A stretch of 64,000 bases of DNA from an uncultured Burkholderiales bacterium (GTDB lineage Bacteria > Pseudomonadota > Gammaproteobacteria > Burkholderiales > SHXO01), in the NCBI GenBank assembly GCA_964523885.1, contig CAZFYX010000038.1, positions 255 through 64,254 of the forward strand, given 5' to 3'. Positions 13,978-45,368 of the stretch are shown piece by piece (position 1 is the first letter of the stretch; the number at the start of each line of letters is the position of its first letter). A program made the position numbers and the translations under genes. A model generated the notes under the pieces. It saw only the letters and a program-made list of their open reading frames with translations. It was not told where the DNA came from and ran no database searches.

Positions 13978-14059
13978 GTTTGGTGCGGGGCAGGGTGGCC
14001 GGGAATGCGCTGCAGCTAGGCTGATCCTGGAAGGGGCGATGGATCCGCCCGGGCGAGGC

Positions 14060-16547: not shown

Positions 16548-16646
16548 GCAGCGGGCAGTGCAGCTCCCCCAAAGTGGCAGCGCGGCAGCATGCCTGCCCA
16601 CCTGCGCACGACTCATTCTCTCATCCTGCCACATCGGAGGCCCGCC

Positions 16647-23135: not shown

Positions 23136-23453
23136 GTCAGCCCATCAGGAATCTGGCTGCCCGGCCCTCACTGCAGCGAGGCAGGGAGCGGTGGACGGGG
23201 CATCCCACACCAATTGTCAACAGCATGAACGGATCAACGCGTCAGGCCAGTGCGCAGCGATTTGCCCGAGCGTGCGACGCCAGGGTGCCGCACCGGTGCA
23301 CATGCAGCGCGATGCAGCCATTGCGAGGTTCCCATTCTAGCGCCGGGGGCGGCGGCGGCGCGCCCCTCCAGGATGACTCCGTCAGGTGTCCGGCCTGGCA
23401 GATGGCAGCGGGTCGACCGGCAGTTGAGCGAACCCGCCACGGAAGCCGGCGCC

Positions 23454-30025: not shown

Positions 30026-30222
30026 GCGGACGTAATGCAGCGGATGACGGTCCCCCATTTTAGCGGCGAGGCAGCATCCGTATGGTCCTTTCTCGCGGCC
30101 ATCTCCGGGGACGGGGCCCGAGCGCGCACGGCACGGCAGTTGCTTTTCACGTTTCGTCGAGATTCGACGGGAGGCTCCGAGCGGATCTGCACCATCGTCG
30201 CACGATGCCGTTACAGGAACAC

Positions 30223-31041
30223 ATGGGCACCGTCATCGCGTTTCGCCGTCCGCCACACTGGCTCACGCACTACGAGCGCGGCCAGGTGCGCTCGATCGCG
30301 GCCTGGAAGGCGGCCCGGCCCGGCGCGTACGAGAGCTTCGTGCGCGGCCTCACCCGCCCGCTCGCCGAGAACGTGCATACGCTCCTCAAGCCCTCCGTGG
30401 TGCGCGTGTTCGGCGATCTGCTGGAGTACCTCAACAGCCGCTTCGCGCGCGACCACGACCTGACCCGGGACGCGGGCATCCGCGGCGCGGGCATCCTCGA
30501 CATCGAAAGCCTGTCACAGAAGCCGCTGGAGGTGGCCGACGCTGTCGCGGACTACGTGATTGCCGATGCGCGCAGCCGCGCGGTGGCGGCGGGCGCGGCG
30601 AGCGGCCTGGCCACCCCGGTGGCCCTGGCGCTGGGCATCCCCGCGGCATTCAGCGCCGCCTTGCGCGCAAGCCATCGGGTGGCGCAGGCCTACGGGTGCT
30701 CCGGCGAAGCCCAGTCCGATCGCGCCATGGTGCTGCAGGTACTGGCCCTGTCCCTGGCAGTGACGCGTGCGGAACGCACCCGGGCGATGCAGGACTACCG
30801 GCGCCAGCTCGAGCACGCGTTCGTCAACTCCGCGGTCGACGAGATCATCCAGATCATCATCGAGCGCACCGTCGTGCGGCTGCAGCTGGGGAGCGCTGTG
30901 CCCGGCCTCGGCGTCCTGATCAGCGCCCGCGTCCACGGCCGCTTCGTCGAGCGCGCCGCCGTATGCGCCAAGCGCGTGTTCCAGGAACGTTGGCTGCGCA
31001 CGCGCGGCAAGGTGGACTGGATCGAGCCTCGCGCCGCCTAG
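30223..31041 (+). CDS. EcsC-family protein, paralogue 1
   Basis: 272 aa. It has the EcsC-like pattern (ADYVIADARSRAV...HRVAQAYG...VFQERWLRTRGKV) and is about half identical by eye to 32295..33134. Confidence 0.6.
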   Translation: MGTVIAFRRPPHWLTHYERGQVRSIAAWKAARPGAYESFVRGLTRPLAENVHTLLKPSVVRVFGDLLEYLNSRFARDHDLTRDAGIRGAGILDIESLSQKPLEVADAVADYVIADARSRAVAAGAASGLATPVALALGIPAAFSAALRASHRVAQAYGCSGEAQSDRAMVLQVLALSLAVTRAERTRAMQDYRRQLEHAFVNSAVDEIIQIIIERTVVRLQLGSAVPGLGVLISARVHGRFVERAAVCAKRVFQERWLRTRGKVDWIEPRAA

Positions 31042-31515: not shown

Positions 31516-32298
31516 GTGACCGCGGTGTTTCGCCAGCAGGCCCTGGCGCGCTGGCCCCGCTTCGCAGCGGCACTCGATGCACACTTCCCTGGCGCGATCG
31601 AGCTCACCGACTACGTGACCCGGTCCGCACGGGCGCTTGGGCGGCATGGTTTCGGCGACGCCAACACGCTGGGCGTCGTGGTCACCTGCCGTGACGAGAT
31701 CGCCACGCCCCTGCACACCCAGGTGATGCAGGCCTGGGGCAAGACCTTCGATGGCCGCAGCCTTGCCGGCTTCCTCTCCATGGGGGCGACCGGCATCGAC
31801 GCCGCGCTGTCGCATGCCCCCGTCGTCGACGGCCACGCGCGCTTCGCGCTCTATGCGATGCCGCACATCGCGATCTCCGAGGACGGCGTGATCGGCAACG
31901 TCTATCGCGAGAGCCTGCAGCAGGTCTCGCACGCGTGCGGCTCGCTGGCCGGCGTGCTGCACCAGCTGGAGGCGGGGCACGCGCGCCGCGTGATCGACCT
32001 GGACGACATCGAGCAGAGCCTGGTGAAGGGCCTGCTTCTGACCGCCCTGCGGCACGGCGAGGCGCGCGACCTCCTGGCGGTGACGCAGCTCGCTGGCCGG
32101 CTGATCACCGAGGATGTGGGACGCCTGGTCCTGGCCGCCGACCCGGCGCGGTACAGCTACGCGGTGTTCACCGGGGTGCTCGTGCACGGTCCTGGTGACG
32201 TTCACTGGGTCCACCCGCTGCATGCGTACGCGCGCGGTGTCGCCGTGGGCACCGGGACCGCCCACCTGACCGACCTGCACCTCGCGGTCGCGCGTTAG
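31516..32298 (+). CDS. Hypothetical 260-aa soluble protein with a Cys...His...Cys pattern (possible beta-CA-like/LCIB-like fold)
   Basis: GTG start 13 nt after the previous stop and GC3-rich codons. Candidate ligands: VVVTCRDEI, MPHIAISEDG, QVSHACGSL. Confidence 0.55.
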   Translation: MTAVFRQQALARWPRFAAALDAHFPGAIELTDYVTRSARALGRHGFGDANTLGVVVTCRDEIATPLHTQVMQAWGKTFDGRSLAGFLSMGATGIDAALSHAPVVDGHARFALYAMPHIAISEDGVIGNVYRESLQQVSHACGSLAGVLHQLEAGHARRVIDLDDIEQSLVKGLLLTALRHGEARDLLAVTQLAGRLITEDVGRLVLAADPARYSYAVFTGVLVHGPGDVHWVHPLHAYARGVAVGTGTAHLTDLHLAVAR

Positions 32299-33134
32299 CG
32301 CGCCCCGGGCGCGATCCACGCGACCTTGCCGCGGTCGCGCAGCCAGCGTTCCTGGAACACGTGCTTCGCTGCCACCGCCGCCTTCTCGACGAAGCGCGCG
32401 TGCAGGTAGGCGTTCATCAGTACGCCTGCGGCCGGCACTGCGGTGCCGAGCTGCACCCGGACGACGATGCGGCGCAGGAGCGCCGAGGCCGTATCCTCCA
32501 CCATCGAGCCCACCATGCCGTCCGCGAGCGCGACCTGGCAGTCGCGCAGTGCCCGTTCGTGGTCGCGGCGCGACACCGCCAGCGAGAGCGCCAGCGTCTG
32601 CAGCGCCAGGCGGCGGTCGACCGCCGTGTCGCCCGGGTAGCCATAGGCCTGCGCGACACGATGGATCGCGCGCAGCGCTGCGTCGAGCGCGACGGGCACG
32701 CCAACGGCGAGTGCGGTGGGCGAGGTGAATCCGGTCAGGGCGCCGGCCTTCACCGCGCGGCTGCGCGCATCGGCGATCACGTAGTCGGCCAGCACGTCGG
32801 CGTACTCGAGCGGGCGGCCGGCGAGGTCCTGCAGGGACGTGATGCCGGCCCGGCGCAGGCGCGCATCGCGGAGGATGCTGTCGCGCTCGGCGGTCCGCGC
32901 TGCCATGCGCTCGAGCACCGCATTCACCAGCCTGCCGATGGAGGGGCGCAGCGCCCGCTGCATGCCCCGTGTCACGGGGGCGGTCCAGCCCTGGAGGAAG
33001 CGCGCGAGCGCACCGGCCGGTGCGCCTTTCCACGCGGCGATCAGGCGCACCTGCTGGCGCTCGTAGCGCGACAGCGGCTGCGGCGGATGCACCCGTGAGA
33101 AGGGGAGGATGGTTCCTGGCGCGGTCGTTTCCAT
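32295..33134 (-). CDS. EcsC-family protein, paralogue 2 (last gene of the ATPase operon)
   Basis: 279 aa. ATG at 33132-33134. It shares the blocks ADYVIADARSRAV, HRVAQAYG and VFQERWLRDRGKV with paralogue 1. Its stop overlaps the stop of the convergent 31516..32298 gene. Confidence 0.6.
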   Translation of the reverse strand: METTAPGTILPFSRVHPPQPLSRYERQQVRLIAAWKGAPAGALARFLQGWTAPVTRGMQRALRPSIGRLVNAVLERMAARTAERDSILRDARLRRAGITSLQDLAGRPLEYADVLADYVIADARSRAVKAGALTGFTSPTALAVGVPVALDAALRAIHRVAQAYGYPGDTAVDRRLALQTLALSLAVSRRDHERALRDCQVALADGMVGSMVEDTASALLRRIVVRVQLGTAVPAAGVLMNAYLHARFVEKAAVAAKHVFQERWLRDRGKVAWIAPGAR

Positions 33135-33162
33135 GCACCACCTCGAAGCGTGCGGGTGCCCG

Positions 33163-33564
33163 CTACCCGTCGCGACGGCGATCGAGCGGCGGATAGCGCC
33201 GGTCGAGGTCGTCGAGTAGGCGGTTGATCTGGCGCAGCGCGGTGTGGATCGGGCGCGGCGCATGGCCGCGCTGCCACTTCTCCAGCTTGACGCGACCGGC
33301 CTTGGTCCGCGCGAGCAGGCCGATCAGGAGGATCGGCGCACCCAGGATGCCGGGGATGGCCAGCCCGATCAGGCCGGCCATGATAAGCGTGTTGCTGGTG
33401 CCGCGTGAGAGACGCTCCACGCGCTCGATGACGTACGCGTCCTCCTGCACTTCCAGCGCTTCGGCGGTGGCGGCGGTCACCGGCAGCAGTCGCGGATCGG
33501 GCCGGCCGAGGGGCGCGGGGAGCGGAACGACGCGGGTCTCGGTACTGTCTGGATTCTGGGTCAT
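33163..33564 (-). CDS. Small membrane protein (133 aa, central hydrophobic hairpin)
   Basis: ATG start 21 nt after the stop of the degenerate ATPase. The hydrophobic core is TLIMAGLIGLAIPGILGAPILLIGLLA. Confidence 0.55.
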   Translation of the reverse strand: MTQNPDSTETRVVPLPAPLGRPDPRLLPVTAATAEALEVQEDAYVIERVERLSRGTSNTLIMAGLIGLAIPGILGAPILLIGLLARTKAGRVKLEKWQRGHAPRPIHTALRQINRLLDDLDRRYPPLDRRRDG

Positions 33565-33585: not shown

Positions 33586-35967
33586 TCAGTCGGCAAGCGT
33601 GCTGGCGCGGTGTCGACCGGGATCGGGGACGGGGAGGGTTGCGGCGCCGGGCTGTACCCGCAGCGCTTGCAGGGCGCGCTTGGCGCGCTTGTATACGGCG
33701 AGCGTGCCGGCGTTGCTTGCCAGCACCACGGCAAGGCCGTTGAAGCCGAGCACGAACACGCCGGCGACGCAGAAGAGGTTGTAGCCGAGCACGGTGCGGC
33801 GCGTGCTCTTCAGGCGGTCGGCGTGCTCGCGTGCGCTGTGCAGGATCCCGGGCAGCGGGCGCAGGCGGCGGCCGAGGATCACGAAGTCGGCCGGGTTGCG
33901 CTCGACCGGCAGTGCGCCATCCAGTGCGATGGAGACGGCAGCGCTGCCGGCCAGCGGCAGCCCGTCGCAGTCGCCGACCACCGCGGCGTTGACGCCACGG
34001 CGGCGCAACCCCTCCATGAAGCGCACCTTGGTCGGTGCGGTCATGTCGCCGCTCGCGAGCCGGATGCCCAGTGCGTCGGCCAGCTTGCGGGTCTGCGCCT
34101 CGGGACGCTGGGAGATCAGGAACACCTCGACGCCGGCGTTGCGCAAGGCCGCGATCGTGGCCCTGGCTTCCGGCGGACCGCTGCGCCGGAAGCCGACGCG
34201 CGCGACTTCGACGCCGTCGATCTCGACGCGCAGCGCCGGCGGGGTGCGCTCCATCCCGGCAGGCCGGCCAAGCAGCGTGATGCGCTGGCCGTTGTTCTCC
34301 ACGGTGACCGCTTCCGCCTCCAGGCTCACCAGCGGCATCCGCGCTGGCTGCAGGCCCTGCGCGAGGCAGGCCTTCACCAGGGCCTCGGCGCGCTCGTCGC
34401 CGAGGTACAGCGCGGCCGAGGCGATGTGGGGGAGCAGGACGTGGGTGTCGAGCGCGCCGCGCGGCTTGATCCCTGCGACCTCCACCGCGGGCTCGTGCAG
34501 GTCGGCGTGATCGTCGATCACGACCATCGAGATCGCGCCGAGCGCCTGCAGCGCGGTGGGGTTGCGCACCAGCACGCCGGACTGCAGCAGTGTCCCGGCC
34601 TGATGCATCGCGCCCAGCGAAGCAGCCAGGGCCAGCCCGTTGGCATAGTCCGGGCGCAGGAGTGCGGAGGCGGTGGCCAGGTCACCCACCAGCAGCCCTA
34701 CGCCGGCGGTGGCCATGGTCGGCGCCACCGCGCCGTTGGCGAAGCGCTCGGCGCCTTCGTGCAGCGCGAGCCTGCGCGCGCTCGGCCGCGTCGCGTGCTC
34801 GAATGCGCGGCCGACCTGTGCACGCCATGCGTCGTCGCCGGTGCGCAGCACCTCGACCGTGATCGCCCCTTCGTACACCAGGCTGCCCGCCACGACGTCC
34901 GCGCCGGCCACCTTGCGGATCCAGGGGTTGGGCGCGGTGAGCGGCGGCTCGCGCACCAGTGCGCTGCCGTCCACCACCTTGCCATCGCCGGGCACCAGCT
35001 CGCCGGCGGCGACCCGTACGCGCGCACCGACCAGCGCTTCCCCGGTCACTGCAACCTCGCGCTCGGTATCCTCCAGATGCAAGGGCATCACCTGGTCCAA
35101 CAGGCCGTGGCCCTCGAGCGTGAGATCCTCGCGGTAGCGCTGCTCCCAGTAGCGGAAGCACCACAGCATGAGCGCCGCCGACAGGAACTGGCCGGTGCCG
35201 AGCGTCGCCACGATGATCGCCGTGTACAACAGCGGCAAGCCGGTCCGGCCCTGGGTCAGCTGGCGGCCGCCGGCACGCAGGATGTCGAGGTTGGCGACCA
35301 CCAGCAGACCGGCCGACAGCGGCGTGAGCGGCGCCAGCACGAGCTCGGCGGCGGCCAGGCCGACCGAGACGTTGGCGAGGCGGAAGTCCACCTGCGCCAT
35401 CGGCGGTGCGACCGCCAGGGCGATGGCGCGCTCCGCGATCCGCAGCACGCACTCGGCATCGAGGCTCGCGGGATCGAAGCGGATATCCATCCCGCGCACC
35501 AGCTTGCTGGCATGGGCACTCGCGATTCCGGGCACCGCCCGCAGGGCGGTCTGCGCCCGGCCCGTCGCGGCCTTGTCGTGCCCGAGGGCGCGGTGCCCGA
35601 TGAACAGATGCCCGGGCGCGACGTGCAGGCGTTCGGCGGTCGAGACCAGGGGCCCGTGCCGGTACAGCGTGACGACTTTGGCGCCGCTCCATGCCGGCAT
35701 GCGCTCACGGGGCAACCCGGTGCCGCGACCCTCGATCAGCCCGGCCAGCCCCTCCGTGAACGCTGCGCGCGCGCTCGCGCGCACGGCATAGCGGACGTGT
35801 GCAGCGCCCCGGTCGAGGTCGAGGCGGACGCTGCTCACCTCCGGACAGGCCAGCAGCCGGCGGGCAAGAGCGTCGGCGAGCGCGGGTCCCTGCGCGGAGC
35901 ACAGGCGGGGGTCGCGGATGCGCATGGCGTCGCGCTCGATGGCGACCTGGGGATGTTGGCCCTGCAT
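33586..35967 (-). CDS. Full-length P-type-ATPase paralogue with all catalytic motifs degenerate (predicted non-catalytic pseudo-ATPase)
   Basis: It is collinear with the 37546..40188 ATPase, but TGES is replaced by TAPN (34927-34938), DKTGT by DDHAD (34501-34515), SGD by SQR and GDGINDS by GDCDGLP. The ORF is intact over 793 codons, and 19 of 20 codons checked around DDHAD end in G/C. Confidence 0.7.
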   Translation of the reverse strand: MQGQHPQVAIERDAMRIRDPRLCSAQGPALADALARRLLACPEVSSVRLDLDRGAAHVRYAVRASARAAFTEGLAGLIEGRGTGLPRERMPAWSGAKVVTLYRHGPLVSTAERLHVAPGHLFIGHRALGHDKAATGRAQTALRAVPGIASAHASKLVRGMDIRFDPASLDAECVLRIAERAIALAVAPPMAQVDFRLANVSVGLAAAELVLAPLTPLSAGLLVVANLDILRAGGRQLTQGRTGLPLLYTAIIVATLGTGQFLSAALMLWCFRYWEQRYREDLTLEGHGLLDQVMPLHLEDTEREVAVTGEALVGARVRVAAGELVPGDGKVVDGSALVREPPLTAPNPWIRKVAGADVVAGSLVYEGAITVEVLRTGDDAWRAQVGRAFEHATRPSARRLALHEGAERFANGAVAPTMATAGVGLLVGDLATASALLRPDYANGLALAASLGAMHQAGTLLQSGVLVRNPTALQALGAISMVVIDDHADLHEPAVEVAGIKPRGALDTHVLLPHIASAALYLGDERAEALVKACLAQGLQPARMPLVSLEAEAVTVENNGQRITLLGRPAGMERTPPALRVEIDGVEVARVGFRRSGPPEARATIAALRNAGVEVFLISQRPEAQTRKLADALGIRLASGDMTAPTKVRFMEGLRRRGVNAAVVGDCDGLPLAGSAAVSIALDGALPVERNPADFVILGRRLRPLPGILHSAREHADRLKSTRRTVLGYNLFCVAGVFVLGFNGLAVVLASNAGTLAVYKRAKRALQALRVQPGAATLPVPDPGRHRASTLAD

Positions 35968-35994: not shown

Positions 35995-36465
35995 TCAGCG
36001 CGCGGTGCGCTGGATCTCGATCGCCTCGCGGGCGCGCCCGGAGAGGCGGCCGGCGAGGGACTTGGCGTTCCGGTGCATGGCGATGAGGTTGAGGAATTCG
36101 CGCATGGCCGCTTCGGCTTCCTCGCGATCCTTCACCAGACCCAGGTGCAGGCGGAACCCATGCACCTGGTCGCGCTGCTTCTGCGCCGCGGCGGTCAGGT
36201 CGTGGACGATGACCACCGGCTCCTTCGTGGCGAGCACGCGGTCCTGCGCGGCCATCGCCTGCGACTGCTCGACGCTCAGCAGGAACAGCGGGTCGCCGGC
36301 CTGCAGGGCGTTGAGCTCGCCCAGGTGGGCATGCAGCACTTCGCTGGGGAGCGGCCTGGTGCGGGTGTCGACGACGTAGATGCGCAGCCGCGGCTGGGCC
36401 TTCGCCGGGTCGGACCAGCTCTCATTCGCGGCAACGAGCGTGTCCCGAGCGGCGTTGTCGTTCAC
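35995..36465 (-). CDS. Soluble protein of unrecognised family (156 aa), paralogue of the C-terminal domain of 36715..37485
   Basis: GTG start with GGAG 6 nt upstream. Shared blocks: PRLRIYVVDT / PRFKIFVVDT, VHDL, HGFRLHLGL / HGFRIHLGL, EF...I..HR. Confidence 0.6.
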   Translation of the reverse strand: MNDNAARDTLVAANESWSDPAKAQPRLRIYVVDTRTRPLPSEVLHAHLGELNALQAGDPLFLLSVEQSQAMAAQDRVLATKEPVVIVHDLTAAAQKQRDQVHGFRLHLGLVKDREEAEAAMREFLNLIAMHRNAKSLAGRLSGRAREAIEIQRTAR

Positions 36466-36483: not shown

Positions 36484-36681
36484 TCAGGATGCAGCCACGT
36501 ACGGCTGCAGCAGGCCTTCGGCGGCCATGTCCTCCAGCCGGGCGACCAGCGGATACTCCTCGCGGCCGAGCACCTGGTAGAGGTCGCGCAGCCGGCGGAT
36601 GCGCCGATAAATCTCGAAGGCCGTATAGGCGACCACGAGGGCGCCGAACACCATCGTCAGGATATCAGCCGTACGATCCAT
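36484..36681 (-). CDS. Small single-pass membrane protein (65 aa)
   Basis: ATG with GGAGGA 8 nt upstream. N-terminal TM segment (ILTMVFGALVVAYTAF) followed by a basic helix (EIYRRIRRLRDLY). It is tightly packed between the two paralogous genes (33-nt and 18-nt gaps). Confidence 0.55.
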   Translation of the reverse strand: MDRTADILTMVFGALVVAYTAFEIYRRIRRLRDLYQVLGREEYPLVARLEDMAAEGLLQPYVAAS

Positions 36682-36714: not shown

Positions 36715-37485
36715 TCAAATCTTCGCCAACAGGGCGATTGTATCCCTTAATCCCGCGCGCCTCAGCCGCTTCTGGACGTCGCGCTCGAGGGTGTTGGAGT
36801 CGCGGTGCAGGGTGATGAAGCGGGTGAATTCCTGCAGCATGTCCAGGGCGTGGGCGGGCGTGTTGGCCAGGCCGAGGTGGATGCGGAACCCGTGGAACTG
36901 CGGCCTGCCGGGACGGCTCTTCACCGCGAGGTCGTGGACACAGATCAACGGGTCCTTGCCGATCAGGGTGCGGTCCAGCTGGATGAAGTCGATAGACTGC
37001 GCGGGGCTGAGCACGAAGATCTGGTCCTCCGGCGCCAGCTTGGCGATCAGGCCGAAGTTGTCGCGCACGACCTGGCTGGCGGGGGAATGCCAGCCGGTGT
37101 CGACCACGAAGATCTTGAAGCGTGGCCCGGTCCTTCTGGCGGCGGCAGGCGCAGCGGCCACTGCAGGCACCGATGCCGCGGGGACCTGGTGCAAGGGTGA
37201 CACGTTCCCGGTCTGGGTCATGGGATGCTCCGGCGATAGCTCATGCGCAGGCGCAGCGGGCTCGTGCCCGTCCTGCGCTGCGTGCCCGGCGACCGCGACG
37301 TCGGCGGACGTGCCCGCCAACACGTCGAATTCCGTTCCGGCGGGGTGCGACACCTCGACGACATACGCCTCGACGGCGTCGAGGTGCGGACCGTCGAATG
37401 CAATCACGCTCTTCTGCGGGCTCCGTCGCCGTCCGTTGGCCAATGGCGGCGCATCCCTGCGCTTGCCGCGGCGCTTCTCGCTCAT
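36715..37485 (-). CDS. Protein of unrecognised family (256 aa): disordered basic/Ala-Pro-rich N-terminus plus a C-terminal domain paralogous to 35995..36465
   Basis: ATG at 37483-37485 with GGAGGAG 8 nt upstream. The C-terminal ~135 aa align by eye to the 156-aa protein at roughly one third to 40 percent identity. Confidence 0.6.
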   Translation of the reverse strand: MSEKRRGKRRDAPPLANGRRRSPQKSVIAFDGPHLDAVEAYVVEVSHPAGTEFDVLAGTSADVAVAGHAAQDGHEPAAPAHELSPEHPMTQTGNVSPLHQVPAASVPAVAAAPAAARRTGPRFKIFVVDTGWHSPASQVVRDNFGLIAKLAPEDQIFVLSPAQSIDFIQLDRTLIGKDPLICVHDLAVKSRPGRPQFHGFRIHLGLANTPAHALDMLQEFTRFITLHRDSNTLERDVQKRLRRAGLRDTIALLAKI

Positions 37486-37545
37486 CACCACATCTCCTCC
37501 ACGCGCAGCGGCACGGGACGCAGTCTCGCTACCTGCCGACCGCGA

Positions 37546-40188
37546 TCACGCCGCGGCTGCCACATCCGCCGTCCCGAAGCCAGCCGGATCGGCCTTGCGC
37601 TCCGCCCTCGCCGGGGCGGGCAGGGCCGGCGTCACCTGCGGTCGGCCCGGCACGAGCTCGTTGACCTGCGCGTTCAGGCCCGCGCTGCGCAGCTCCAGCT
37701 CCAGCCGGTGACGGCGCGCCGCCTCGTGCTGCGCGACCTTGCGCATCGGCCACACGCCGTTGGCGAGCGCCGCCAGGGCGGCGACATTGTTGGCGAGCAC
37801 CGAGGCGCCCACGCCGAAGCCCAGGGTGAACACGCCGGCCATGCACAGGGCGTTGGGCAGGATGATCATTCCCCAGCTGCGACGGATGTTGTGCTCGAGC
37901 GCCGTGGCGATGTCGCGCAGCTCGCACAGCTTGCCCAGGCCCTGCTCCATGAACACGATGTGCGCGGTGTCGGTGGCAATCGAGGTCGCGCCGCGCAGCG
38001 AGATCGCCACGTTGGCTTTCTTCAGCGCGATCGAGTCGTTGATGCCGTCGCCGACGAAGCAGACCTTGCGGCCTTCGGCCTGCAGCCTGGCGACGTATTC
38101 CGCCTTGTCCGCCGGCAGCACCTGAGCGAAGTAGCGGTCCATGCCGAGCTGCTCGGCGAGCTTGCGGGTGGGCGCCTCGTGGTCGCCGGAGATAATGGCG
38201 ATGTGCTTGATGCCGCGCTTGCGCAGACCGGCGATGATCTCGACCACCTCCGGGCGCACCGAGGCGCGCAGCTCCAGCGCGCCGCCGAGTGCACCGTCGA
38301 CCGCGACCATGACCATGGTGTGGCCCTCGCGGTGCGCCTCGTCCAGCGCGGCGGCGACGTCCGGCGGAACCGCGATGCCTTCCATGTCCATGAAGCGCGG
38401 GCTGCCCACCTTGATCGTGTGGCCGCCCACCCCCACGGTGATGCCGTACCCGACGCTGTACTGCGTCTCGTCGGTCGCCTGCAGCCTGAGGCCGGCTTCC
38501 TCGGCCTTGTGCAGGATCGCGAGCGCGATGGGATGGTGGAACTTGGCCTCGGCGGCGGCGGCGAAGCCCAGGATCTGCATGCCGTCGAAACCGTTGCAGG
38601 CGACGATGCGACCTACCTCGGGGCGCTCGCGGGTGAGGGTGCCGGTCTTGTCGAACAGGATCGTGTCCACGCTGTGCATGAGCTCCAGCGCGCGGCCGTC
38701 CTTCACCAGGATGCCGCGCTGCGCGCACAGGGCCAGCGAGGACAGCATCGCCAGCGGCGCGGCCATGCGGATGCCGGTGCCCAGGTCGCAGTTGAGGATG
38801 GCGACCGCACCGTTGGGGCCCATGGTGCCCATCGCCAGCGCACCGATCGCCAGGGTGGGGATGACCGCCTTGTCGGCCAGCTGCTCGCCCTTCTGCTGGG
38901 TGGCCATCTTGTAGCCGGCGGTGTCGTTCAGGATCTGCGCGATGCGCGCCGAGGCGGTGTCGCTGCCGGCCTTCTCGACCGACACGTAGACCTTGCCGGC
39001 GACCAGGATGGTGGAGGCGAAGACACGCTCGCCCACGCCCTTCTCCGCCGGCGTGGATTCGCCCGTGAGCGCGTGCTGGTCGACCATGGCCATGCCTTCG
39101 ACCACCACGCCGTCCACCGGCACCATGTCGCCGGTGTGTACCGCCACCACGTCGCCGGCATTGAGCTTGTCCAGGCTGACCTGGGTCTCCACGCCGTCGC
39201 GCACCAGCCACACGAAGCGCGGCTGCTTGCCGAATGCGCCGAGCAGCATGCGCTTGGAGTTGTCCTCGGTGCGCTTGACCAGCATGCGCCCGAACGACAG
39301 GCACCAGGCCAGCACCGCACCGGGGAAAATCTGCAGGGTGGACAGGCATCCGATCACCACGATCGAATCGAGCACGTCCACGCCGAGCCGACGCTCCTTG
39401 AACAACACGTCGTACGCGTTGCGGAAGCTGGGGATTGCGGTGTAGGCGAACAGTGCGGCCGACACCGGCAGCAGCGGTGGCGCTGCGAACTGCGCGAACG
39501 CGGCGAGCGGCAGCGAGCCGGTGCAGATCGCGAGGTGCAGGTCGAGCTTGTCGAGCTGGGTCGGATGCTCCGCGCTGGCCAGCGCGGCGTCGAGCACCTC
39601 CATGAGCTGCGCGACGTCGAGGATGCGCGGATCGTAGTCGATCTGCACCGCGCAGCTGATCGAGCTGCTCTTGAAGCGGTCCACGCCGTGCAGGGCCATC
39701 AGCTCGCGGTCGATGGCGTCGCACAGCGCCTGCTTGCGGTAGAGGACCGGATTCTTCAGGTGGACCGTGCCCAGCCGCCGGCGGGTGATCTGCCAGCCGG
39801 TCACCACGTGCCCGTAGCGGTGATAGTGCGCCACGCCGTGACGGTCGCGCACGCTGGACACCGGGGCGATCTGCGGCGGGCGCAACTCGACGGGCTGCCC
39901 CTCGCGAGTCCCGGCTTCGGCCGGCAGCAGCGGATCGGCATGCGTCATGACCGCGGCCAGGCGACCGAGCACATCGGCCAGCAGGCTGCGGGAGGGGTCG
40001 AAGCGCAACTGCGCCGCGGGGCGCCTGCCCTGGCCGATGGTTGCGCCCGACAAGTCGGTGGCGTGGAACGCGCGCTCCAGGAATCGCCGGCACAGGTCGC
40101 CCGCCGGGTCGGAGAACAGCGTCGCGCTGTGGATGTCGATGACGCCGGCGCGTGGGAAGGACAGCGCGACGTCGATGGTCGGTTCCAT
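37546..40188 (-). CDS. P-type ATPase, P1B-like architecture but lacking a CPx-type transmembrane motif and CxxC metal-binding domains
   Basis: TGES (39055-39066), DKTGT (38638-38652, verified codon by codon), FHHPIA, SGD and GDGINDS are all present. The membrane helix before the P-domain reads ILNCDLGTGIRMAAP (NCD at 38785-38793). The ATG at 40188 is preferred; the TTG at 40212 is an alternative. Confidence 0.8.
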   Translation of the reverse strand: MEPTIDVALSFPRAGVIDIHSATLFSDPAGDLCRRFLERAFHATDLSGATIGQGRRPAAQLRFDPSRSLLADVLGRLAAVMTHADPLLPAEAGTREGQPVELRPPQIAPVSSVRDRHGVAHYHRYGHVVTGWQITRRRLGTVHLKNPVLYRKQALCDAIDRELMALHGVDRFKSSSISCAVQIDYDPRILDVAQLMEVLDAALASAEHPTQLDKLDLHLAICTGSLPLAAFAQFAAPPLLPVSAALFAYTAIPSFRNAYDVLFKERRLGVDVLDSIVVIGCLSTLQIFPGAVLAWCLSFGRMLVKRTEDNSKRMLLGAFGKQPRFVWLVRDGVETQVSLDKLNAGDVVAVHTGDMVPVDGVVVEGMAMVDQHALTGESTPAEKGVGERVFASTILVAGKVYVSVEKAGSDTASARIAQILNDTAGYKMATQQKGEQLADKAVIPTLAIGALAMGTMGPNGAVAILNCDLGTGIRMAAPLAMLSSLALCAQRGILVKDGRALELMHSVDTILFDKTGTLTRERPEVGRIVACNGFDGMQILGFAAAAEAKFHHPIALAILHKAEEAGLRLQATDETQYSVGYGITVGVGGHTIKVGSPRFMDMEGIAVPPDVAAALDEAHREGHTMVMVAVDGALGGALELRASVRPEVVEIIAGLRKRGIKHIAIISGDHEAPTRKLAEQLGMDRYFAQVLPADKAEYVARLQAEGRKVCFVGDGINDSIALKKANVAISLRGATSIATDTAHIVFMEQGLGKLCELRDIATALEHNIRRSWGMIILPNALCMAGVFTLGFGVGASVLANNVAALAALANGVWPMRKVAQHEAARRHRLELELRSAGLNAQVNELVPGRPQVTPALPAPARAERKADPAGFGTADVAAAA

Positions 40189-40285: not shown

Positions 40286-40645
40286 TCAGTGGCCGGACGC
40301 GTCCTCGACCGGCGCCGCGTACTCGCCGATGCCCTTGGCCTCGTTCACCGCGTCGATTGCCGCGCTCGCACCGTCCTTCAGGCCGCGCACGAAGGGGTTC
40401 TCCTGCGGGACGGACTTGGCGATGAAGACCGCGGCATAGACCAGTCCGTAGGAGATCATGTAGGAGCCGGTGTAGGCGGCCCGCGAAGCGGCGTTGGCGA
40501 TCTCGGGCCCGGCGTTGCCGAGCTTGGCGCGCAGGCTGGCTGCGTCGTTGGTGGCCGCACTGGCCGCCTTGCGCATGGCGTCGGCCACGGCGGACAGGGG
40601 ATCGGACCCGGCGGCTTCGGGGGCGGCGGCTTCGGCGCTCGACAT
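40286..40645 (-). CDS. Small Ala-rich membrane-anchored protein (119 aa), first gene of the ATPase operon
   Basis: ATG at 40643-40645 with a strong AAGGAGAAA SD. One hydrophobic segment (YMISYGLVYAAVFIA) is flanked by Ala-rich helices. Confidence 0.6.
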   Translation of the reverse strand: MSSAEAAAPEAAGSDPLSAVADAMRKAASAATNDAASLRAKLGNAGPEIANAASRAAYTGSYMISYGLVYAAVFIAKSVPQENPFVRGLKDGASAAIDAVNEAKGIGEYAAPVEDASGH

Positions 40646-40896
40646 GATGCTTTCTCCTTGATTCGTTGGGCTGACCCCATGCGGCCCGGGTGCCGGGCTC
40701 GCGTGGCGCATGGTAAGCATTACCTGATCGCCTACCCTACACCCCCAATACGGCTCAGGTCATGGGCAAATCTCGACAGGTTGGTGCATGCCACCGTCCA
40801 AGGCCGGGATTCGATCCGCTGCCATGACATTAGGCTGAGTGCCGCGGACGCATTTGATCCAGCGCAGATGTTCATGCCGGAGCCTGCGCGTGCACG

Positions 40897-41592
40897 TCAG
40901 ACCAGGTTCGACAGGGCATTGACCACCAGGCCCAGGATCAGGACCACGAAGAAGAACGACAGGACGGCGTGGACCAGGGTCAGCCGCCGCATGGTCCAGC
41001 CGGTGACGGACACGTCCGAGGTCTGGTAGCACATGGCGATGGTGAACGAGTAGTACATGAAATCCCAGTAGTCCGGGGTGTCCCGCTCCGGGAAGTCGAG
41101 TCCGCGGCGGTATTCCCGCTTGCCCGCCAGGACATGGTCGTCGTAGTACAGCCGCATGTAGTACAGCCCGACGAACAGGTTGAACAGCACCCAGGACAGC
41201 GCCACCGCCAGCATCGACATCACCTGGTGCAGGTTGCTCACCCACGCGGGCCAGCCCTTTACCGGCTCGAGCATGAAGATGACGCCGACGATGCTGGTGG
41301 CCACGACCACCGACGCCGTGATGACCGCGCGCAGCCCGCTCGGCTCCCCCTCGCTGGCCATGACCGCGCATTCCTCGGGCTCCACGGTGGTGAAGCGGAA
41401 GGCGCTCAGCGCGAGGTAGGCCAGGGTTCCGAGGTTGAAGGCCAGCACCAGGCGGGTGCTGACGGGGAGGGCTGCCGCGGCGAAGTACGCGACGACCGTC
41501 AGCACCAGCGCAAGGGCCAGGCTCGCAAGCGGGGATGCGAAGGCGGCACCCGGCGCGGGGTGCGACATCTTGTCGCGGTCAGCCTTGTTCAT
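40897..41592 (-). CDS. DUF1345-like integral membrane protein
   Basis: Multi-pass hydrophobic profile with the characteristic DYWDFMYYSFTIAMCYQTSDV block. ATG at 41590-41592. Confidence 0.6.
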   Translation of the reverse strand: MNKADRDKMSHPAPGAAFASPLASLALALVLTVVAYFAAAALPVSTRLVLAFNLGTLAYLALSAFRFTTVEPEECAVMASEGEPSGLRAVITASVVVATSIVGVIFMLEPVKGWPAWVSNLHQVMSMLAVALSWVLFNLFVGLYYMRLYYDDHVLAGKREYRRGLDFPERDTPDYWDFMYYSFTIAMCYQTSDVSVTGWTMRRLTLVHAVLSFFFVVLILGLVVNALSNLV

Positions 41593-41794
41593 CGTGTCCT
41601 TGTCCCGGCCGTCGGTGCCGACGCCGGGTCTGCGCAACCGTTGCGTGCCCTGCCTGGAAAACCGCACCGCACACTATGCCGTCGTGCTGCGGAGGAGTCA
41701 TTGGCACTTCTTGACAGCTCGCGCACCGCGCGGTGCAGTGCGGGAACGAGAACCAGAGCCAACCGGGCGCCGCCATGCCACAATCCCGCCCCGC

Positions 41795-44464
41795 ATGGAT
41801 ACCCGACCCTCAGGCAGGACCCACGACACCGCGGAGCATGCGCGCGTAGCGCTCGCGCCCCCCGGCCGCCCCGGCGACTGGAAGCTGCTCGGCCCCTATG
41901 TGAGCGAGCGCGCCTGGGGCACGGTGCGCGAGGATTACAGCGCGGACGGCAAGGCCTGGGAATACTTCCCGTACGAGCACGGGCGCTCGCGCGCGTATCG
42001 CTGGAACGAGGACGGACTGGCCGGCATCTGCGACATCGGGCAGCGCATGTGCTTCGCGCTCTCGTTCTGGAACGGGCGCGATCCGTTCCTCAAGGAGCGC
42101 ATCTTCGGCCTGGCCGGTCCGGAGGGTAACCATGGCGAGGACGCCAAGGAGTACTGGTGGTACGTGGACGCCACGCCGACCTCGTCGTGGCTGCGCTGGC
42201 GCTATCACTACCCGCAGGCGGAGTTCCCCTACGCGCAACTGCGCGAGGAGGCGAAGCGGCGGGGCAAGGCGGACCGCGAGTTCGAGCTCGCGGACACTGG
42301 CGTGTTCGACGGCGGGCGCTACTGGGAGATCAGCGCCGATTACGCCAAGGCCACGCCGACCGACCTGTGCCTGCGCCTGACCGTCCGCAATGCCGGCCCC
42401 GAGCAGGCCAGGCTGCACGTCCTGCCCACTCTGTGGTTCCGCAACCGGTGGTCCTGGATCGAGGATGGGCGCCGTCCGCAGGTACGGGCGGTGGAAGGTG
42501 CAGCCGATGTGGCCTGCGCCGTGGCCGAGGAGCCGCTGCTCGGTAGCTGGCAGCTGGCGGCCGGCCCGGGCCCGGACGGCAAGGCGCCGCAACTGCTGTT
42601 CTGCGAGAACGAGACCAACACGGCGCGGCTGTTCGGCGCCGGGGCCGGCGGTCCCGCTTACCCGAAGGACGGAGTCAACGACCACGTCGTATCAGGCGCC
42701 GCCTCGGTGAACCCGGCGCAGTCCGGGACGAAGATGGCGTGCTGGTACGTGCTCGACGTGCCGGCCGGCGCGTCGGTGGAAGTGCGGCTGCGCCTGGTGC
42801 GTGCCCCCCAGGCTGCACCGCCCGACCTCGCGGCCGGTTTCCAGCAGGTCATGCAGCAGCGCGCGCGCGAGGCGGACGAGTACTATGGCGCACTGCTGCC
42901 GGACGGCACGGGCGAGGACGAGGCGCGGGTCATGCGCCAGGCCTTCGCCGGCATGGTGTGGAGCCAGCAGTTCTATCACTACGATCTGGAACGCTGGCTG
43001 GCCGGGGATCCGACCCAGCCCAAGCCGCCGCAGCAGCGCGGTGCTGGCCGCAACGCGAACTGGCGTCACCTGGACAACCACGATGTCATCGCGATGCCGG
43101 ACAAGTGGGAGTACCCGTGGTATGCCGCCTGGGATCTCGCCTTCCACAGCGTGGTGCTGGCACACATCGACCCCGCCGCCGCGAAGCACCAGCTGCTGCT
43201 GCTGTTGCGCGAGTGGTACATGCATCCCAACGGCCAGCTGCCAGCCTACGAGTGGAACTTCAGCGACGTGAACCCGCCGGTGCAGGCGTGGGCCGCGCTG
43301 GCGGTGTTCCGCATCGACGGCGGCGAGGATTTCGACTTTCTCGCCCGCGCCTTCCACAAGCTGCTGCTCAATTTCACCTGGTGGGTCAATCGCAAGGACG
43401 CGCGCGGCGACAACGTGTTCCAGGGTGGCTTCCTGGGGCTGGACAACATCGGCCCGTTCGACCGCTCTGCCATGCTGCCCGACGGCGAGGTGCTGGAGCA
43501 GTCCGACGGCACGGCCTGGATGGCGAAGTTCTGCCTGAACATGCTGGAGATGGCGCTGCGCCTGGCCAACCGCGACCGCAGCTACGAGGACCTAACGCTG
43601 AAGTTCTTCGAGCACTTCGCCTACATCGCCGCGGCGATGGACGAGCTGTGGGACGAGGAGGACGGCTTCTTCTACGACCGCCTGCGCCGGTCGGACGGCA
43701 GCACGATCGCAGTGCGCGCGCGGTCGATGGTCGGGCTGCTGCCGGTGTTCGCAGGCGTGAGGCTGGATGCTGCGCTGTGGGAGAAGCTGCACGACTTCCG
43801 CGCCCGCGCGCGCTGGTTCATCGACAACAAGCCTCACCTGGCGGGGTTCCTGGGCTACTTCCCGCACGACGGCCGGCCCGAGCTGATATCGGTCTGCAGC
43901 GAGGCGCGCCTGCGACGGGTGCTCGCGCGCATGCTGGACGAGTCGGAGTTCCTGTCGCCGTTCGGCCTGCGCTCGCTCTCCCGCTACCACCGCGAGCATC
44001 CGCTGGTGATCCAGATCGACGGCGGCACGGCGAAGCTGGACTACGAGCCGGCCGAGTCCGCCACCGGGCTGTTCGGCGGCAACTCCAACTGGCGCGGGCC
44101 GATCTGGTTCCCGCTCAACTTCGTGGCGCTCGAGTCGCTGCGCCACCTGCACGAGTGCCTGGGCGACGCGTTCACGGTCGAGTTGCCGACAGGGTCGGGC
44201 AGGCAGGCGCACCTCGGGCAGGTGGCGGACGAGTTGGAGCGCCGCCTGCTCGCGCTGTTCCTGCTCGACGGTCGGCAGCGTCGTCCGGCGCATGGCGAGA
44301 CGCAGCTGTTCCAGGCCGATCCGGCCTGGCGCGATCACATCCTGTTCTACGAGTACTTCCACGGCGACACCGGCGAAGGCCTGGGCGCCTCGCACCAGAC
44401 CGGCTGGACCGCGCTGGCCGCAGCAATGATTGCCAACCGGACGATGCGCAAGCGCGGCACATGA
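41795..44464 (+). CDS. GH63-like / MGH1-like six-hairpin glycoside hydrolase, paralogue 2
   Basis: It carries the same conserved blocks as 16647..19391 ([89 protein letters not shown]). Confidence 0.7.
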   Translation: MDTRPSGRTHDTAEHARVALAPPGRPGDWKLLGPYVSERAWGTVREDYSADGKAWEYFPYEHGRSRAYRWNEDGLAGICDIGQRMCFALSFWNGRDPFLKERIFGLAGPEGNHGEDAKEYWWYVDATPTSSWLRWRYHYPQAEFPYAQLREEAKRRGKADREFELADTGVFDGGRYWEISADYAKATPTDLCLRLTVRNAGPEQARLHVLPTLWFRNRWSWIEDGRRPQVRAVEGAADVACAVAEEPLLGSWQLAAGPGPDGKAPQLLFCENETNTARLFGAGAGGPAYPKDGVNDHVVSGAASVNPAQSGTKMACWYVLDVPAGASVEVRLRLVRAPQAAPPDLAAGFQQVMQQRAREADEYYGALLPDGTGEDEARVMRQAFAGMVWSQQFYHYDLERWLAGDPTQPKPPQQRGAGRNANWRHLDNHDVIAMPDKWEYPWYAAWDLAFHSVVLAHIDPAAAKHQLLLLLREWYMHPNGQLPAYEWNFSDVNPPVQAWAALAVFRIDGGEDFDFLARAFHKLLLNFTWWVNRKDARGDNVFQGGFLGLDNIGPFDRSAMLPDGEVLEQSDGTAWMAKFCLNMLEMALRLANRDRSYEDLTLKFFEHFAYIAAAMDELWDEEDGFFYDRLRRSDGSTIAVRARSMVGLLPVFAGVRLDAALWEKLHDFRARARWFIDNKPHLAGFLGYFPHDGRPELISVCSEARLRRVLARMLDESEFLSPFGLRSLSRYHREHPLVIQIDGGTAKLDYEPAESATGLFGGNSNWRGPIWFPLNFVALESLRHLHECLGDAFTVELPTGSGRQAHLGQVADELERRLLALFLLDGRQRRPAHGETQLFQADPAWRDHILFYEYFHGDTGEGLGASHQTGWTALAAAMIANRTMRKRGT

Positions 44465-44501
44465 CCGGCGCTGCCCGCATCCCCCGAACCAGGAGTGGCT
44501 C

Positions 44502-45368
44502 GTGAAGTTCACGCTGACCGTCGTCGTGCCGCTGCTGGTGATCTTCACCATGTTCGTGGTCGGCCTGAACCTGACGCGCGAGGCCTTCGTCGCGCTGAAG
44601 CAGCACCCGCGCGCGGCGCTGCTCGGGCTGCTGGGCCAGTGGCTGCTGCCGCCGGTCGTGGCCGTGCTGGTCGCGCGCGCGCTGGCGTTGCCCCCGGTGC
44701 TGACCACCGGGCTCATCCTGGCTGCAGCCGCGCCGGTCGGGGTCATGTCCAACTACTACGCGCTGGTCGCACGCGCCAACGTGGCCCTCGCGGTGACGCT
44801 GACCGCGGTGTCGAGCGTGGCTTCGGCCCTGTCCGCACCCCTGGCCGCCTCGCTGGGCTATGCGCTGGCGCTCGGGCAGGATGCGCCGTTCGACCTGCCG
44901 ACTGCGCAGGTGCTCAAGCAGACCATCATCGGGCTGCTTCTGCCGGTGGTGGTGGGCATGGCCGTGCGGCGGTATGCGACCGCGTGGGTGCTGAAGCACG
45001 AACGCACGCTCGAGCGGCTCGCGCTCGTGGCCGTGGCGCTGCTGGTCGCCTTCATCGTCTCCGACCAGATCGAGCTGATCCGCACGCAGTTCTGGCTGCT
45101 GCTGCTGACCTGCGCGCTGTTCACCGCGCTGATGCTCGCGGCGGGGTGGATCGCCGGCCGGATCGCCTCCCGGGAGGCGGCCGACCGTTGCGCCATGCTG
45201 TTCGGGTTTCCTGCACGCAACATGGGCGTGGCCATGCTGATCGGCGTGGCAGCGTTCGGTCGCCTCGACATCGCGGCATTCGCGGCGGTGTTCTTCCTCG
45301 TGCAGGTTGCCGTGCTGCTGCCGCTGGCCGCGTCGATGGCGCGCCGCACGCCCACCCCGTCCGCCTAG
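44502..45368 (+). CDS. Bile acid:sodium symporter (BASS/SBF-like) family transporter
   Basis: GTG at 44502 with AGGAG 7 nt upstream. The protein is a 288-aa polytopic membrane protein with a BASS-like pattern (GLNLTREAF...LILAAAAPVGVMSN...FGFPARNMGVAM). Confidence 0.65.
   Translation: MKFTLTVVVPLLVIFTMFVVGLNLTREAFVALKQHPRAALLGLLGQWLLPPVVAVLVARALALPPVLTTGLILAAAAPVGVMSNYYALVARANVALAVTLTAVSSVASALSAPLAASLGYALALGQDAPFDLPTAQVLKQTIIGLLLPVVVGMAVRRYATAWVLKHERTLERLALVAVALLVAFIVSDQIELIRTQFWLLLLTCALFTALMLAAGWIAGRIASREAADRCAMLFGFPARNMGVAMLIGVAAFGRLDIAAFAAVFFLVQVAVLLPLAASMARRTPTPSA

Follow-up and report, generated by a model that had tools for sequence, protein, structure and literature searches.

A P1B-derived ATPase family without the CPx motif, its catalytically dead paralogue, and a possible link to calcium handling

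What does a P-type ATPase carry when its catalytic core is complete and the transmembrane motif from which the substrates of its nearest relatives are read is absent, and with which proteins does it work? The question is raised by a gene that we call ATP1, found in a 64,000-nt stretch of DNA (the window) from an uncultured Burkholderiales bacterium (GenBank assembly GCA_964523885.1, contig CAZFYX010000038.1, positions 255 to 64,254). Judged by its conserved motifs, ATP1 is a catalytically intact P-type ATPase of P1B ancestry, and its predicted membrane site is devoid of soft-metal ligands at the canonical positions. We found that ATP1 is co-inherited with a dead paralogue, ATP2, and with four or five small proteins. 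We tentatively relate this cassette to the transport of a hard divalent cation, possibly Ca2+.

Catalytic core and membrane site of ATP1

Plus-strand translation of positions 37546-40188 yields no ATPase, and ATP1 is encoded on the minus strand. Its reading frame is open as far as a TTG at 40212, and its GC content at third codon positions (GC3) is 0.93 in a window of ~68% GC. In Pfam, the protein matches E1-E2_ATPase (E-value 1.7e-31) and Hydrolase (7.8e-31). We compared it with a family alignment of 153 sequences, compiled from 120 database homologues and the genome loci described below. The motifs TGES (residues 375-378), DKTGT (513-517), HP (H552-P553) and GDGIND (713-718) are invariant in 153/153 sequences. 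ATP1 thus combines the DKTGT and TGES motifs, the GDGxND hinge and the nucleotide-binding domain by which the P-type ATPase superfamily is recognised. Among NCBIfam models it passes the generic P1B model TIGR01525 (404.7 bits versus a cut-off of 346). The best match among solved structures is Archaeoglobus CopA (AfCopA; phmmer, E-value 1.1e-68), to which ATP1 aligns collinearly from MA to M5 (query residues 201-784). A topology of eight helices including MA/MB is assigned by this homology; a simple hydropathy scan shows three clear helices. The domain order, with N-terminal HMA-like domains, MA/MB and six core helices, and A, P and N domains, is shared with P1B pumps such as CopA, ZntA and CoaT/PfeT (PDB 3J09, 3RFU, 4UMV, 7QBZ). 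ATP1 also resembles these pumps in an 'MDxL'-type M1 start, in a Pro placed nine residues beyond the CPx position, in the Asn of M5 and in the HP motif. A preliminary description of the locus had claimed a complete catalytic core and a P1B-like domain order, and both claims hold. It had given no strand, and it had mentioned neither ATP2 and the conserved cassette nor the named family (Pfam HMA_2/CoBaHMA) to which the N-terminal domain belongs.

Substrate classes P1B-1 to P1B-7 are defined by Cys-containing M4 tripeptides, namely CPC, CPH, SPC, PCP, SCA and CSC (PMC13460109). No such tripeptide was found at the substrate site in the 153 sequences of the ATP1 family. In the M4 signature (Table 1), the residues N, D, G, T, G, I, R, A, A and P are invariant in 153/153 sequences, and the pattern is likewise kept in the comparison across loci. 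In the phmmer alignment to AfCopA, where posterior probabilities for the M4 region are moderate, CPC stands opposite L469-G470-T471, because there is no gap between it and the conserved Pro478. This position reads L/F/M-G-T in all 153 sequences, with a Gly in place of the helix-breaking Pro that is present in M4 of nearly all P-type ATPases. Three residues beyond LGT lies Arg474, which is also invariant in 153/153 sequences.

We considered the triplet NCD (residues 466-468, bases 38785-38793) as an equivalent of CPx and rejected it. NCD lies one helical turn upstream of the CPx position in the AfCopA alignment, and its Cys467 is a minority variant, because 140/153 sequences have Ser here and 13/153, including the window protein, have Cys. 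The preliminary description had located NCD correctly and had rightly reported the absence of a CPx motif, as none of the P1B-1 to P1B-7 tripeptides matches LGT. Its proposal that NCD is the counterpart of the substrate motif is not borne out, nor is the small insertion that it suspected in M4, the alignment being gapless back from Pro478. Its view that specificity cannot be read from the P1B subclass rules stands, since all those tripeptides contain Cys (PMC13460109) and that of ATP1 contains none.

Among the polar residues of the predicted transmembrane helices, N466, D468, T471, N779, S796 and N800 are invariant in all 153 sequences. The remaining M5-M6 residues listed in Table 1 are invariant as well, save N801 (150/153). 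N779, in the pair P778-N779 of M5, is the equivalent of the Asn in the CopA 'YN' motif, and an additional invariant Cys, C782, lies one helical turn from it. M6 reads S796-x-x-T-N800-N801 (SVLTNN) where CopA has MxxSS, and the M5-M6 spacing is N779-x20-N800-N801-V-A, with no His. None of the 153 sequences has a Cys, His or Met in the M6 motif or where CPx would stand in M4.

ATP1 therefore departs from known P1B pumps in several respects: LGT without Cys or Pro in M4, an Asn-x-Asp upstream and an Arg three residues downstream of it, S...TNN in M6 instead of MxxSS, DxG or HEGxT, and no CxxC. Of the P1B-1 features, M5 PN keeps only the Asn, M6 is SVLTNN, CxxC is absent, and the Cu model TIGR01511 fails. 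The CPC, M5 Lys and M6 DxG of P1B-2 are all absent. The P1B-6 signatures D[Y/F]SCA and HNxxT (N-x18-H-N-x-S/T) are missing too, the ATP1 family having NSDLGTG.

Public databases name members of the family 'Cu2+-exporting ATPase' or 'heavy metal translocating P-type ATPase', and their partners 'hypothetical'. ATP1 could accordingly be seen as an ordinary exporter of Cu+, Zn2+ or Cd2+ whose motif happens to be unusual, a view with which these public names, the pass on TIGR01525, the top score of AfCopA among solved structures and the retained CopA M5 Asn agree. However, ATP1 fails both the Cu model TIGR01511 (278 bits versus 397) and the Cd/Zn model TIGR01512 (302 versus 313.5). It also fails the ZntA (209 versus 1240) and KdpB (144 versus 528) models, and no named NCBIfam equivalog reached its cut-off with ATP1. 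The missing soft ligands in M4 and M6 and the missing CxxC likewise speak against such an exporter. Among the named neighbours we found no CopZ/CsoR/CueR/MerR-type gene (only genes with Pfam matches were judged), and no known metal exporter has a dead paralogue as its obligate partner. We consider an ordinary heavy-metal exporter hardly credible, and the copper/heavy-metal label in databases is probably wrong for the ATP1 family.

Other M4 segments without CPx were seen in more distant P1B-like ATPases (L036, L039, L041, and L032 at 4463-6490 on the minus strand; 27-49% identity) from Chloroflexota, Clostridia and other groups. They read NANFGFRVK, GANYAEILR, SSNFSEIMR and QLDFAQGVG, and are frequently basic where ATP1 has Arg474. 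None of these ATPases, of which those of L036, L039 and L041 are 42-49% identical to ATP1, is accompanied by a cassette. The sequences suggest a wider, unclassified CPx-less clade beyond the cassette family.

A dead paralogue and small proteins inherited with ATP1

ATP2 starts 1.6 kb downstream of ATP1 and is collinear with it (26% identity across 705 aa, E-value 8e-43). All of its catalytic motifs have decayed: TGES has become TAPN, DKTGT has become DDHAD, HP has become GD, and GDGIND has become GDCDGL. On TIGR01525 it scores 123 bits versus a cut-off of 346. Across ATP2 orthologues the catalytic motif positions are not conserved, and the phosphorylated Asp is lost in L008, L011, L028 and L038. 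Retained are membrane positions, namely D[YWF]x[ST][GA]P in M4, PNxxCxAGxF in M5 and an Asn in M6. On this pattern of conservation, ATP2 is a maintained pseudo-ATPase. Some loci deviate from the usual arrangement. In Pirellulales L024/L025 (12526-14970), ATP2 follows ATP1 directly with no thioredoxin-like gene or p65 between them, part of its P/N region is apparently lost, and the thioredoxin-fold and p133-like genes lie upstream. In L037, L040, L042, L016 and L035, all metagenome-assembled genomes (MAGs), the coding sequence of ATP1 or ATP2 is broken up over several frames. In L040, L042, L016 and L035 this is probably assembly or long-read frameshift error and not pseudogenisation; L037 is the exception, since its DKTGT reads DIAGI.

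In the window, the genes 3' of ATP1 are p258, p65, p156, ATP2 and p133, which share its strand and are separated by 18-97 nt (Table 1). A genome scan yielded 43 loci from Methylococcaceae, Acidobacteriota, Isosphaeraceae, Pirellulales and other Planctomycetota, and Alphaproteobacteria. To these we added Methylomagnum ishizawai, Methyloterricola oryzae, a Stellaceae MAG (L047) and Methylococcus mesophilus 16-5. The cassette is thus kept across Gammaproteobacteria, Alphaproteobacteria, Acidobacteriota and Planctomycetota. Partners were counted at loci with ATP1 of at least 50% identity and enough flanking sequence: p144 lies upstream of ATP1 in 32/34 loci, and a thioredoxin-like protein is present in 29/37, the p65 peptide in 27/35, ATP2 in 31/34 and p133 in 31/33. 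Across phyla, ATP1 is 55-75% and ATP2 30-42% identical.

The small proteins are largely without names. Those of the cassette gave nothing useful in Pfam at E-values up to 10 and no NCBIfam names, and p144, which has a public gene call of 119 aa with a start at 40645, has no Pfam, NCBIfam or PADLOC match. PADLOC matched none of the nine cassette proteins and so offers nothing for a role in anti-phage defence. The thioredoxin-like domain of p258 was modelled with AlphaFold2 (pLDDT 86, pTM 0.82). Its top 50 Foldseek matches are nearly all thioredoxins, PDI (b') or KaiB-like proteins, at weak scores (probability up to 0.98, E-value ~1e-2 with a best of 8e-3, TM-score 0.4-0.56). At the site of the thioredoxin WCGPC the family has the motif D-x-G-W-x-S-P, and the active-site Cys is absent. 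Neither p258 nor p156 has a sequence-level Pfam (E-value up to 10) or NCBIfam match. A word-indexed search with this domain returned 4 proteins, and a profile query was used instead; it found 231 representatives at E-values up to 1e-3 among 1.84 billion proteins. By these comparisons the thioredoxin-like proteins form an orphan family. The p65 gene, which lies between the two thioredoxin-fold genes, is too short for usual filters of open reading frames; at three loci (L045, L046 and L047) its stop and the start of ATP2 overlap by 4 nt. p133 bears a weak resemblance to DUF454/YbaN (hhalign probability 57%). A promoter and terminator scan was uninformative.

A plasmid-borne relative is found on pMRAD05 of Methylobacterium radiotolerans (NC_010518.1, L049/L050). 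Its ATPase WP_012340169.1 is 47% identical to ATP1, and its M4, NADLGTGIRMAAP, keeps N-A-D-L-G-T-G-I-R-M-A-A-P. The gene is followed by a CorA-like gene, whose product scores well under the CorA equivalog cut-off, and then by a gene for a 614-aa degenerate ATP2-like protein annotated as hypothetical. We regard this system as a mobilizable-plasmid variant. We also asked whether the 'two cation-transporting ATPases' adjacent to ccyA on the Fischerella NIES-4106 megaplasmid are ATP1 and ATP2; the 25 plasmid matches listed include no Fischerella record. The cyanobacterial plasmid matches among those listed are generic P1B pumps (33-36% identity).

Table 1. Positions in the window of ATP1, its predicted domains and motifs, cassette partners and selected nearby genes
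Feature	Position	Strand	Description
ATP1	40188..37546	-	880 aa, ATG start; Pfam and NCBIfam matches, invariant catalytic motifs
ATP1 N-terminal domain 1, residues 8-82	39943..40167	-	Ferredoxin/HMA-like fold without CxxC
ATP1 N-terminal domain 2, residues ~106-207	39568..39873	-	CoBaHMA-type HMA_2 domain, assigned by homology
ATP1 M4 signature N466-C467-D468-L-G470-T471-G472-I-R474-M-A-A-P478	38755..38793	-	From alignment to AfCopA and 153 sequences
ATP1 phosphorylation motif DKTGT, D513-T517	38638..38652	-	Invariant in 153/153 sequences
ATP1 M5-M6 block S771, W772, P778, N779, C782, G785, S796, N800, N801, N810, G811	37756..37878	-	From alignment
p144	40286..40720	-	Small protein rich in Ala, one hydrophobic segment; gene next to ATP1 on its upstream side
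p258	36715..37491	-	Low-complexity N-terminus and cysteine-less thioredoxin-fold domain (residues ~115-258)
p65	36484..36681	-	65-aa single-pass membrane peptide, FEIxRRxxxLRxxYxVL...PY
p156	35995..36465	-	Second thioredoxin-fold copy, paralogue of p258 C-terminal domain
ATP2	33586..35967	-	793-aa pseudo-P-type ATPase, paralogue of ATP1
p133	33163..33564	-	Small membrane protein, PG-rich hydrophobic hairpin, C-terminal helix QI.R.L.DLERRYP
EcsC-family gene	32295..33134	-	PF12787, 3.5e-24; final gene of the same-strand run, optional accessory
LCIB-type beta-carbonic-anhydrase-like gene	31516..32298	+	PF18599, 7.5e-50; convergent with the operon
DUF1345 (BPSS1818) membrane protein gene	40897..41667	-	PF07077, 4.6e-46; directly upstream, same strand
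Second EcsC-family gene	30064-31041	+	
OprB-type porin gene	28682-30058	-	
GH63/MGH1-like glycoside hydrolase gene	16272-19391	+	
GH63/MGH1-like glycoside hydrolase gene	41435-44464	+	Directly upstream of the cassette region
SBF-family transporter gene	44430-45368	+	

Several other genes of the window recur near the cassette elsewhere. The LCIB-type carbonic anhydrase gene stands between the two EcsC-family genes, of which the one on the minus strand has also been delimited as 32295-33263, and an OprB gene adjoins the cassette in Stellaceae L047 too. The two glycoside hydrolases are paralogues of ~1010-1040 aa; the SBF-family gene comes after the one nearer the cassette, and a GH63 homologue follows the cassette in L040. 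The large genes at 11576-14059, 216-3008 and 19425-23144, all on the minus strand, encode a DUF3141 protein (838 bits), an Orn/Lys/Arg decarboxylase and an AsmA/YhdP-like protein and have no visible tie to ATP1.

N-terminal module and genomic neighbours

We modelled ATP1 residues 1-221 with AlphaFold2 from 45 aligned sequences. The model (mean pLDDT 88.7) contains two alpha/beta domains, at residues 8-82 and ~106-207, of which the first exceeds a pLDDT of 90. In a Foldseek search of the PDB, the module matched ATP7B, the tandem ACT domains of aspartate kinase and, as lone HMA domains, MerP (TM-score 0.78), RAN1 MBD3 (0.72) and CopZ (0.69). Domain 1 has conserved residues R18, C33, R35, R39 and R62. 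CxxC is absent from both domains in the sequence and in the family alignment; each retains a single conserved Cys where helix 1 begins, C33 and C156. At the position of the HMA metal loop ATP1 reads NPVLYRKxxLC, with a single Cys, versus GMxCxxC of classical HMA domains. Pfam found no PF00403 or other HMA match in the N-terminal 220 aa, even at E-values up to 10. The two HMA-shaped segments and the lack of CxxC metal-binding domains that had been noted in the preliminary description are thus borne out by the model and its matches.

Domain 2 has an additional N-terminal strand (beta0) bearing H123 (111/153 sequences) and R124 (150/153), and conserved basic residues at K/R143, R151, K152, R161, R171, K173 and R188. 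PF19991 (HMA_2) is matched by 18/44 homologues; in one of them, P0067, the match covers residues 175-241, the equivalent of domain 2 (33.9 bits versus a gathering score of 30). HMA_2 has been equated with CoBaHMA by Bruley et al. (bioRxiv 10.1101/2024.07.07.602159). CoBaHMA belongs to the HMA superfamily and is marked by a conserved His, a beta0 strand and a patch of basic residues. We assign ATP1 to HMA_2/CoBaHMA by homology, because the window protein has no PF19991 match of its own; its model and the family alignment show the fold, the beta0 strand, the basic residues and the lack of CxxC of this family. The first CoBaHMA domain described was that of calcyanin, which marks cyanobacteria that form intracellular amorphous CaCO3 (iACC; PMC8890360). 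The ATP1 module shares the HMA-like fold, the beta0 His/Arg, basic residues in beta1/beta2 and the absence of CxxC with W-type calcyanin and the ccyA-adjacent CoBaHMA-DUF454 proteins. It differs from CoBaHMA proteins in being doubled and fused to a P-type ATPase and to a pseudo-ATPase paralogue.

This module raises the possibility that ion transport is not the primary function. The ATPase would then drive membrane remodelling, lipid handling or signalling, organised by a lipid-binding CoBaHMA domain, with ATP2 and the small proteins as effectors. Gaschignard 2024 is said, in its abstract, to hypothesise that CoBaHMA binds anionic lipids and to report it in lipid-metabolism proteins. Three proteins per locus can bear the same N-module, and the EcsC and DUF1345 partners are of unknown function; both observations would suit such a role. 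However, the polar residues of M4-M6 never vary, which is what one would expect if they lined an occluded ion site, ATP2 keeps the same membrane positions and not cytosolic ones, and P1-type pumps have six core helices only and no known lipid pathway. We regard a primary role in lipid handling or signalling as very improbable.

Neighbouring genes were counted at 23 loci with at least 8 kb on both sides of the cassette. A CaCA (cax-type) gene lies within 10 kb in 13/23 loci, which makes cax by far the commonest transporter neighbour. All five CaCA proteins tested score above the cut-off of the TIGR00378 'calcium/proton exchanger' equivalog (247-374 bits versus 211). Carbonic anhydrases of any type are found in 9/23 loci (LCIB-type in 4/23, Pro_CA in 5/23), and 7/23 have both CaCA and carbonic anhydrase. 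EcsC and DUF1345 each occur in 7/23 loci and Nramp in 4/23. In Methylomagnum and Methyloterricola, ATP2-p133-EcsC-cax-LCIB_CA form a tight array on a single strand.

Eight loci (L001 7187-8200, L025 15420-16472, L007, L033, L022, L024, L026 and L037) additionally encode a double HMA/CoBaHMA module like that of ATP1 fused to a DUF454 (YbaN-like) membrane domain. The first ~200 residues of these proteins are homologous to the ATP1 N-module (HMM E-values 7.5e-13 and 6e-7) and DUF454 scores 86-93 bits; the gene is placed between the cassette and cax. Together, up to three proteins per locus carry an ATP1-like N-module. A CoBaHMA-DUF454 architecture adjoins ccyA and cax in Microcystis (bioRxiv 10.1101/2024.07.07.602159), so that the cassette is like ccyA loci in its co-occurrence with cax and with a DUF454 protein bearing the same module. 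It is unlike calcyanin systems in that there is no GlyZip domain and no ccyA nearby. Methylococcus mesophilus 16-5 has the cassette with two cax genes directly upstream; this strain is reported as ccyA-positive and, along with one other methanotroph isolate, has been shown to form iACC (bioRxiv 10.64898/2025.12.07.689555).

The same surroundings bear on a pump for Mn2+, Fe2+, Co2+ or Mg2+, which may fill an internal storage compartment as ferrosome (fez) clusters do. Such cargo would fit C782, invariant one turn from N779, and the further invariant transmembrane Cys, the Nramp genes near the cassette and the CorA-like gene that follows the ATPase in the Methylobacterium plasmid variant. The N-x20-N-N spacing also resembles the P1B-6 hallmark N-x18-H-N. 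The fez clusters with their P1B-6 pump FezB, as well as the CtpC-PacL 'effluxosomes', likewise combine a non-canonical P1B ATPase with small hydrophobic membrane proteins and soluble helpers. Some fez clusters include a second ATPase, FezH, and FezB-type pumps and ATP1 have in common a short M5-M6 loop and no classic CxxC domain. On the other hand, D[Y/F]SCA and HNxxT are absent from ATP1, which sets it apart from FezB by published motif definitions, and the second ATPase of the cassette is catalytically dead. The cassette is accompanied by cax and carbonic anhydrase genes and not by iron genes, and no Feo, Fur, DtxR or ferritin-like neighbours occur in the loci inspected. Its hosts are largely aerobes, whereas ferrosome hosts are anaerobes. 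Rfam searches for an upstream riboswitch, including those for Mn2+ or Mg2+, were empty for the window at 30-46 kb (E-value up to 1) and for six loci (gathering score). The predominance of cax among transporter neighbours also argues against it. We rate such a pump as unlikely, though with a real chance of being correct.

Carbonic anhydrases next to a P-type ATPase could also mean a proton pump, or a proton-coupled or bicarbonate transporter, that works with them. In the plasma-membrane H+-ATPase AHA2, Asp684, Asn106 and Arg655 form an arrangement of proton acceptor and counter-charge. The Asn-x-Asp and Arg of ATP1 M4 would resemble it or, alternatively, the Arg would bind HCO3-. N466, D468 and R474 are invariant with a single carboxylate among them, carbonic anhydrase has been recruited from two Pfam families, and the H+-coupled CAX is nearby. 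However, no H+-pumping P1-type and no anion-pumping P-type ATPase is known, and the many invariant Asn, Ser and Thr in M5/M6 suggest a multi-dentate cation site. Moreover, carbonic anhydrase is present in only 9/23 loci, and a ZntA-like built-in counter-ion would explain the Asp-Arg pair equally well. We hold a proton or bicarbonate transporter to be improbable.

A proposed cation pump and its implications

Overall, we suggest, with a likelihood that we place a little under even, that ATP1 is the sole catalytic subunit of a heteromeric P1B-derived pump for a hard divalent cation, most likely Ca2+. ATP1 and ATP2 would form the heteromer, with the small membrane proteins as accessory subunits by analogy with KdpF, FXYD proteins and PacL. 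ATP1 would run a normal Post-Albers cycle through Asp513, and a site of O/N donors (N466, D468, T471, N779, S796, N800 and N801) would bind the cation. Arg474 may serve as a built-in counter-charge to Asp468, by analogy with the Lys693-Asp714 pair that acts as built-in counter-ion in ZntA. ATP2 may be a non-catalytic scaffold of membrane and CoBaHMA parts, and the basic CoBaHMA patches may dock on anionic lipid and so position or regulate the complex. Ca2+ would be moved out of the cytosol, either across the inner membrane or to a compartment within the cell, and CAX and carbonic anhydrase would cooperate with the pump in handling calcium, protons and inorganic carbon. Ca2+ is favoured as the cargo because of the cax linkage; we infer it from sequence and gene context.

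A number of observations weigh against this proposal. It is solely from synteny that we infer a physical association of ATP1 with ATP2 and the small proteins. The registration of M4 comes from a sequence alignment of moderate posterior probability. Only one carboxylate, D468, is evident in the proposed cation site, and known Ca2+ sites use several. Five invariant Cys lie in or near the membrane helices (C222, C281, C296, C488 and C782), and the neighbours include Nramp (4 loci) and CorA (one locus); possible cargo therefore also comprises Mn2+, Fe2+, Mg2+ or Co2+. ATP1 of the window falls below Pfam HMA_2 detection in the PF19991 scan. There is no cax gene in the window itself, and no calcyanin-like glycine-zipper open reading frame in the window or within 10 kb in any locus. 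The distribution of the cassette also mismatches that of ccyA, since it includes Methylomagnum, Methyloterricola, Planctomycetota and Acidobacteriota, none known to calcify.

A precedent for a multi-subunit assembly around a P1-type catalytic subunit is KdpFABC, in which the P1A subunit KdpB works only within a complex that contains the channel-like KdpA and the tiny single-pass KdpF; KdpFABC and ATP1 also both have an Asp and a basic residue in the membrane domain. The cassette is unlike it in that the partner is a degenerate pump copy and not a channel homologue, and neither KdpA nor KdpC is present. The HMA_2/CoBaHMA domain and the P1B superfamily are already known, and CoBaHMA-ATPase architectures may already be listed in Gaschignard 2024. 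In the literature searched we found no description of the M4 N-x-D-x-G-T-G-I-R signature, of the cassette or of its linkage to cax and carbonic anhydrase. Nor did it show a bacterial P-type ATPase with a strictly co-inherited dead paralogue, and looking there for inactive or paired P-type ATPases, or for FUPA families, turned up no pertinent papers.

P1B classification and substrate prediction rest on the Cys-containing M4 tripeptide, and the ATP1 clade lies outside this scheme. If the heteromeric pump that we favour is real, the cassette would be a tractable model for the use of a pseudo-enzyme subunit in a primary pump. The linkage to cax, carbonic anhydrase and CoBaHMA-DUF454 bears on which pump concentrates Ca2+ in formers of intracellular carbonate; no P-type Ca2+ pump has been reported in iACC-forming magnetotactic bacteria (PMC11773610). 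The Ca2+ hypothesis is directly testable, because Methylococcus mesophilus 16-5 is cultivated and forms iACC. A bolder version, which we offer as a long shot, is that the cassette encodes a hitherto overlooked type of P-type pump, a heteromer of one live and one dead paralogue with small subunits, positioned by CoBaHMA on membranes of anionic lipid, that would act as the missing ATP-driven loader of Ca2+, with removal of H+, for intracellular carbonate, mineral or storage compartments, together with CAX and carbonic anhydrase. If this were true, intracellular calcification or a related calcium and inorganic-carbon organelle would be far commoner than known. It would extend to Planctomycetota, Acidobacteriota and many methanotrophs, in a system hidden under 'Cu2+-exporting ATPase' labels.

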